Shown one piece after another: positions 13,275-13,350 of a stretch of DNA of 64,000 nt. The position numbers and the translations under genes are program-made. Every line of letters begins with the position of its first letter. The stretch's first letter is position 1. Source of the stretch: a plasmid; assembly GCF_056712565.1 (NCBI RefSeq), contig NZ_JBWXXM010000004.1; one strand, 5' to 3'. Under the pieces are notes generated by a model that was not told the DNA's origin, ran no database searches, and worked only from the letters and a program-made list of their open reading frames with translations.

Positions 13275-13350
13275 GGCCCTTTAGCTCAGTGGTTAGAGCT
13301 GGCGACTCATAATCGCACGGTCACCGGTTCAAGTCCGGTAGGGGCCACCA
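13275..13350 (+). tRNA. tRNA with CAT anticodon (Met or lysidine-modified Ile)
   Basis: Acceptor GGCCCTT/AGGGGCC, anticodon loop CTCATAA, T-loop GGTTCAAGTCC, 3-prime CCA. Confidence 0.8.

Follow-up and report, generated by a model that had tools for sequence, protein, structure and literature searches.

A CAT-anticodon tRNA of a P1-like phage-plasmid, very probably the tRNA-Ile2 known as trnI

A tRNA gene with the anticodon CAT raises a question of identity, since its product may be an elongator tRNA-Met, an initiator tRNA-fMet, or a tRNA-Ile2 whose C34 is converted to lysidine so that AUA is decoded. Such a gene lies at positions 13275-13350 of the window, the 64,000-nucleotide stretch of plasmid DNA analyzed here. 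In this study, we address which of the three tRNAs it encodes, how it relates to host and phage relatives, and what it may do for the element that carries it.

The tRNA gene and the element that carries it

In the window, ARAGORN places a tRNA of 76 nt, whose anticodon is CAT, at precisely 13275-13350 (+); its sequence is GGCCCTTTAGCTCAGTGGTTAGAGCTGGCGACTCATAATCGCACGGTCACCGGTTCAAGTCCGGTAGGGGCCACCA. The Rfam family RF00005 matches 13275-13347 over the full model and scores 64.7 bits (E 9e-12) where its gathering score is 29, so the match is not a chance one, and the tRNA is confirmed as real. The anticodon C34-A35-T36 occupies 13308..13310 (+) within the loop C32-A38 (CTCATAA, 13306-13312, +), which is the same as that of host ileX and ileY, and the 3' CCA is genome-encoded at 13348-13350. 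The + strand of 13275-13350 folds as a cloverleaf with a minimum free energy of -30.3 kcal/mol (z -2.6). A sensitive Rfam scan of 10700-13700 returned nothing above threshold beyond three tRNAs; an antisense 'Plastid-ycf2' match on the CAT tRNA, together with miRNA and tmRNA matches in the same scan, was sub-threshold and was set aside as noise.

Window positions 11000-14500 match OP279344.1 (Escherichia phage P1) with 98.2% identity over 100% of the query and the P1 reference with 99% identity over 78%, and they also match P7 and many P1-like elements. We therefore take the window, judged by its sequence, to be a P1-like phage-plasmid. The CAT tRNA is 100% identical over its 76 nt to P1 trnI (AF234172 / NC_005856, 70933-71008), which GenBank record AF234172 places between tciC and ban and describes as 'tRNA-ile2 (CAT)', 89 pct identical to E. 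coli ileX. The placement between tciC and ban, and the upstream Pban promoter and C1 operator, are as in the window, and the compared region of the P1 reference differs only in a variable stretch between tRNA-Thr and tciA. The identity of trnI as tRNA-Ile2 is thus already known for the P1 reference, from its GenBank annotation. In RefSeq E. coli genomes annotated by PGAP, identical copies on P1-like plasmids are called tRNA-Ile and, among the matches listed, the full-length chromosomal ones (85-91% identity) are all tRNA-Ile, corresponding to ileX, ileY and prophage copies. PGAP uses the isotype models of tRNAscan-SE. Since the P1 record and RefSeq both label the gene Ile, the choice between Met and Ile has already been answered publicly, and the locus has little significance beyond correct annotation. 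Correct annotation is of consequence in that the 'Met' labels given by ARAGORN and several phage records would distort codon or tRNA analyses of such phages.

Public labels for this tRNA type vary. A tRNA of the Ile2 type is 'tRNA-Met' in ON470617.2, NC_049917.1 and OR545053.1 and 'tRNA-Ile' in AF234172, AF503408 and NC_000924, while the ileZ-type tRNA, 85.5% identical to the window tRNA in both phages, is labeled Ile in 933W and Met in Lyz12581Vzw.

Determinants of isoleucine, methionine and initiator identity

We compared the window tRNA position by position with the CAT-anticodon tRNAs of the host, namely ileX, ileY, metT, metU and the initiator metZ of E. coli K-12. The identity elements recognized by E. 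coli TilS are the acceptor-stem pairs C4:G69 and C5:G68 (PMC12514573, PMC11947777, PMC1635315). Both are present in the window tRNA, with C4 and C5 at 13278..13279 (+) and G68 and G69 at 13342..13343 (+). The determinants of E. coli IleRS comprise A73, C4:G69, U12:A23, C29:G41, a modified position 34, A35, U36, A37, A38 and elements of the D-loop (PMC9976931 Table 1), of which A73, C4:G69, U12:A23, C29:G41 and A35-U36-A37-A38 were all found. G16 of the published set is missing from the window tRNA; host ileX and ileY likewise carry U16, and their D-arm and anticodon loop are those of the window tRNA.

Overall similarity points the same way. In ileX and ileY, whose CAU anticodon is modified to LAU, 89.5% of the sequence is identical to the window tRNA, including acceptor pairs 1-5 and 7, the D-arm, the anticodon loop, pairs 28:42 to 31:39, the T-loop and A73-CCA. 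The window tRNA differs at 8 positions from ileX and at 8 from ileY, compared with 22 from metT/U and 30 from metZ. A class assignment from such difference counts by the method of Silva et al. 2006, made against the host's own genes only, gives a quotient of 0.36, which places the window tRNA nearer the Ile(CAT) class than Met or fMet.

Could the gene nevertheless encode an elongator tRNA-Met that reads AUG, as it is labeled by ARAGORN and, for the same or related tRNAs, in phage records ON470617.2, OR545053.1 and NC_049917.1? The window tRNA shares with metT/metU the anticodon CAT, A73, the pairs G1:C72 to C3:G70 (thus including G2:C71) and the D-stem, and MetRS can charge unmodified tRNA-Ile2 (PMC1635315, PMC9976931). 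However, the acceptor-stem determinants of MetRS are U4:A69 and A5:U68 (PMC9976931 Table 1), and these pairs, carried by metT/U, are replaced in the window tRNA by C4:G69 and C5:G68. The metT/metU tRNAs further depart from it in having a 9-nt D-loop and an entirely different anticodon stem, and their 22 differences in total stand against only 8 for ileX/Y. The 'Met' labels themselves are explained by naming from the anticodon only, a known failure that tRNAscan-SE 2.0 was built to fix (PMC8450103). An elongator tRNA-Met is, in our judgment, extremely unlikely. Nor does the window tRNA show the features of an initiator. In tRNA-fMet, C1 and A72 are mismatched (C1xA72), position 11 forms A11:U24, and a run of three G:C pairs stands at 29-31:39-41 (PMC1635315). 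All of these are absent from the window tRNA, in which G1:C72 and C11:G24 are found and the anticodon stem reads G-C, C-G, G-C, A-U, and metZ differs from it at 30 positions.

The determinants in the acceptor, D- and anticodon stems, together with overall similarity, make the CAT tRNA assignable, and with high confidence we assign it to tRNA-Ile2, the trnI of P1, rather than tRNA-Met. By the same reasoning it appears to be a phage-borne copy of the minor isoleucine tRNA of enterobacteria, of the ileX/ileY type. The original prediction had held that a CAT anticodon is not assignable from sequence alone, which is true of the anticodon by itself but not of the whole tRNA, where stem determinants, similarity and public annotation all bear on identity. 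These same three lines of evidence bear out the alternative that it offered to elongator Met, namely Ile2, and the TilS identity elements to which it pointed (acceptor stem, 4-69) proved to be of the Ile2 type, with C4:G69 and C5:G68 in place. The isotype that it named as counting against Ile2, elongator Met, is not the one that PGAP gives to identical copies, which are labeled tRNA-Ile.

Divergence from host and phage relatives

The eight positions at which the window tRNA and ileX/ileY differ fall at 6 or 67, 26, 43, 44, 49:65 and 51:63. Both T-stem differences are compensatory, with 49:65 changing from G-C in ileX to A-U and 51:63 from U-A to C-G, which is the pattern expected if function has been kept since divergence from an ileX-like ancestor. 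The remaining differences include pair 27:43, which is G·A in the window tRNA and G·U in ileX/ileY, as well as U26 and C44.

To place these differences among relatives, we gathered variants of the gene carried by P1-like plasmids, by 48-kb E. coli plasmids, by a Yersinia phage and by a Citrobacter plasmid, together with the ileZ of 933W, and aligned them with ileX and ileY. The resulting alignment of nine Ile2-type sequences from phages, plasmids and hosts does not include the copy of the Yersinia phage, whose sequence is also that of a copy on one of the 48-kb plasmids. Standard pairs make up 96.8% of its pair cells, both partners have changed in four of the pairs, and all nine copies keep C4:G69 and C5:G68. 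A single pair is irregular, namely 27:43: the P1 group has G·A, ileX and ileY share G·U with the Citrobacter copy, and 933W ileZ has A·C. Positions 26 and 44 are likewise variable. Since 27:43 is non-Watson-Crick in all nine copies, functional host genes included, we read it as a probable tolerant hinge position and not as damage, and the possibility that the tRNA is defective through G27·A43 was rejected on the same ground. Anticodon-stem substitutions have nonetheless been reported to impair E. coli TilS (PMC11947777), so the efficiency with which trnI is modified could differ from that of ileX.

These data also speak to the idea that trnI no longer functions and is what remains, in decay, of an ileX-like gene once captured. 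In support of decay are the G27·A43 mismatch together with a U6·G67 wobble, an Rfam score of 64.7 bits compared with about 74 for each of the two neighboring tRNAs, and a fold that is weaker than that of ileX (-30.3 vs -36.5 kcal/mol). Opposed to it are the compensatory nature of the T-stem differences at 49:65 and 51:63, the intact state of all identity elements and conserved tertiary positions, the retention of CCA, and the occurrence of non-Watson-Crick 27:43 pairs in every copy compared, including functional host genes (G·U) and 933W ileZ (A·C). The gene is, moreover, unchanged in hundreds of P1-like elements, and we regard a relic as highly improbable. A trnI sequence conserved to at least 99% occurs in 455 E. 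coli records and in 439 plasmid records, although such conservation is weak evidence of selection where the P1-like plasmids compared are near-identical.

A more speculative reading is that the hinge changes (U26, G27·A43 and C44) are adaptive and not neutral, and that the variable tRNA cluster beside the tci genes is a counter-defense module rather than a device for simple codon compensation. We consider this very unlikely. The combination of G27·A43 and C44 also occurs in the 48-kb plasmids and a Yersinia phage, and U26 in a Citrobacter plasmid. If the reading were true, the phage tRNA-Ile2 would be unlike host ileX/ileY, for example in altered TilS or IleRS kinetics or, alternatively, in resistance to some tRNA-cleaving toxin.

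The ileZ gene of the Stx-converting phage 933W, part of an ileZ-argN-argO cluster upstream of stx2, is another phage-borne, ileX-like tRNA-Ile2. Although only 85.5% identical to the window tRNA, it resembles it in carrying C4:G69, C5:G68 and a non-Watson-Crick 27:43 and in lying among other tRNAs. Its companions are two tRNA-Arg genes annotated 'CGG?' and 'AGG?', whereas those of the window tRNA are Asn and Thr, and, unlike the window tRNA, it is located in the late region ahead of the toxin genes and is preceded by a putative promoter of its own. Separately, a variant 95-96% identical to the P1-type tRNA-Ile2 is present on NZ_CP037450.1 and NZ_CP103471.1 (48-kb E. coli plasmids) and in Yersinia pestis phage vB_YpM_39; its presence on unrelated elements of ~48 kb and in a Yersinia pestis phage indicates that this lineage moves between different mobile elements.

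Codon usage, operon context and possible role

If trnI is a tRNA-Ile2, then use of AUA by the phage is of interest. Codons were counted in ATG-started open reading frames (ORFs) of at least 80 codons, taking the longest non-overlapping ones, which gave 59 ORFs and 17,176 codons for the window and 88 ORFs and 27,742 codons for a host sample of two 48-kb K-12 stretches (96 kb). The original prediction proposed a comparison of AUA usage between phage and host, and AUA is indeed enriched, at 10.2 per 1000 against 3.0 in the host sample (10.19 and 3.03, ratio 3.4, rank 2 of 61; Fisher p 1.6e-21), and its share of Ile codons rises from 5.1% in the host sample to 17.4% in the window. As AUA has been put at 4.9 per 1000 genome-wide in E. 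coli (PMC12514573), a baseline that differs from our K-12 sample, the excess is best given as 2- to 3-fold. Only AGG is more over-represented (5.53 vs 1.15 per 1000, ratio 4.8, rank 1 of 61), and ACA follows in rank 3 of 61 (13.16 vs 4.25 per 1000, ratio 3.1). ACA is the codon read by the neighboring tRNA-Thr(UGU).

The further suggestion that AUA is used in the AT-rich accessory genes did not hold, since gene GC and AUA rate are uncorrelated over the 59 ORFs (Spearman rho -0.07, p 0.58) and the top users are mostly baseplate or tail genes of average GC; a concentration of AUA in AT-rich accessory genes was accordingly rejected. Of the five ORFs richest in AUA, four are baseplate or tail genes (GC 0.47-0.52), and the six ORFs at 16046-20797, four of them confirmed baseplate or tail genes, contain 28 AUA in 1475 codons, or about 19 per 1000. 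Further heavy users include doc, a UmuD-like gene, parB and a Ulx-like gene.

The likely benefit of trnI would then be extra capacity for AUA, a codon used at 2-3 times the host level and most heavily in baseplate and tail genes, and tRNA-Thr(UGU) would give the same benefit for ACA. The locus offers a clean example in that two of the three phage tRNAs correspond to the codons ranked second and third in excess over the host. The predictions of codon compensation therefore fit trnI, but as to function the evidence is correlative, and AGG, AGA and CGA are also over-represented without a phage tRNA. Relative to the host sample, the excess is 4.8x for AGG, 3.1x for CGA and 2.6x for AGA, and the phage in the window has no Arg tRNA; in Stx phages, ileZ is accompanied by argN and argO.

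Two other roles deserve consideration. The main role of trnI might be counter-defense, with a spare tRNA sustaining translation when a nuclease of the host or a competitor cleaves host tRNAs. Phage tRNAs have been proposed to evade tRNA-targeting defenses (PMC10264068), P1-like elements differ in the tRNAs that they carry (Tyr in pE2865-1, Ser in D6), and the tRNAs adjoin genes annotated for colicin or tellurite resistance. However, the hallmark of such tRNAs, a change in the anticodon loop relative to the host, is absent from trnI, whose loop CUCAUAA is the same as that of ileX/Y. We know of no nuclease that targets tRNA-Ile2, and, as expected under codon compensation, the specificities of the phage tRNAs fit the codons ranked second and third in over-representation. 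Counter-defense as the main role is very unlikely. Alternatively, trnI could stand in for a host tRNA gene that the prophage destroyed on integrating (tRNA-dependent lysogeny), as in actinobacteriophages that integrate into tRNA-Ile2-CAT genes and carry their own tRNA-Ile2 (PMC10865867). The element is a plasmid prophage, so no host tRNA gene is disrupted; a ParB-like partition protein is encoded in the window, and identical copies of the tRNA are found on circular plasmids of 90-100 kb. The plasmid lifestyle thus refutes this explanation, to which we attach a vanishingly small probability.

Codon compensation remains the reading that we favor, and trnI would be expressed as part of the ban operon. 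The C1 repressor operator Oban, a palindrome (ATTGCTCTAATAAAT / ATTTATTAGTGTAAT) found at 10804..10833 (+), overlaps the ban promoters and is about 99.5% identical to the annotated P1 region, as is the whole stretch from the end of dmt through the ban promoters, C1 operator and leader; Oban and the ban promoters presumably mark the start of the operon containing trnI. Downstream, all in a single orientation (+), lie tRNA-Asn (GTT, 11486..11560; ARAGORN, Rfam and the P1 record), tRNA-Thr (TGT, 11563..11638; ARAGORN and Rfam), tciA (12566-13000), tciB (13000-13164), tciC (13164-13271), whose stop codon is 3 nt before the tRNA 5' end, trnI (13275..13350) and, 286 nt further, ban (13637..15001), which encodes a DnaB-like replicative helicase. 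A strong terminator-like hairpin at 10994-11020 (+), TGCCCATCTTCGGGTGGGCG followed by T7, closes the region annotated as 'dicF-like' in P1 (about 10928-11030 in the window). Because this hairpin sits between the C1-controlled ban promoters and the tRNA genes, read-through or another promoter would be needed, and the route of transcription is uncertain.

We envisage that once C1 repression is lifted, the ban-operon transcript would carry trnI, and that host RNase P and enzymes of 3' processing would cut the tRNA out of it. Host TilS would then convert C34 to lysidine, so that CAT is read as LAU, and host enzymes would add t6A37. Charged with isoleucine by IleRS, the tRNA would decode AUA in time for translation of the late structural genes. 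A TilS encoded by the phage was ruled out, since the TilS-like PP-loop motif SGGxDS was found in none of the six frames of the window and the phage would thus lack a TilS of its own.

Several minor features surround the gene. The 286-nt gap between trnI and ban contains an ORF of 14 codons (MPIISDIQHAWVEC) at 13596-13640 (+) that ends in TAATG, overlapping the ban start at 13637, and through which translation may be coupled to ban. Directly upstream of tciA, 12413-12528 (+) gives a sub-threshold match to the Rfam sRNA family STnc100 (39.8 bits, where the gathering score is 47; E 1.7e-6). Positions 11640-12560, the variable stretch that separates tRNA-Thr from tciA, are unlike the P1 reference, which has plp/upl there, and are made of repeated modules: a CACAACAGGTAAGGGC repeat at 11202, 11640 (one base past the tRNA-Thr 3' end), 11855 and 12338, CTTACCGTTGTGATGAATGC-like units at 11715, 11911, 12144 and 12405, and a 25-nt repeat, 96% identical, at 12083 and 12362. 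As related elements carry other tRNAs in this cluster, with Tyr lying between Asn and Thr in pE2865-1 and Ser present in D6, these repeats may have been left behind by an exchange of tRNA cassettes or may serve as its substrates.
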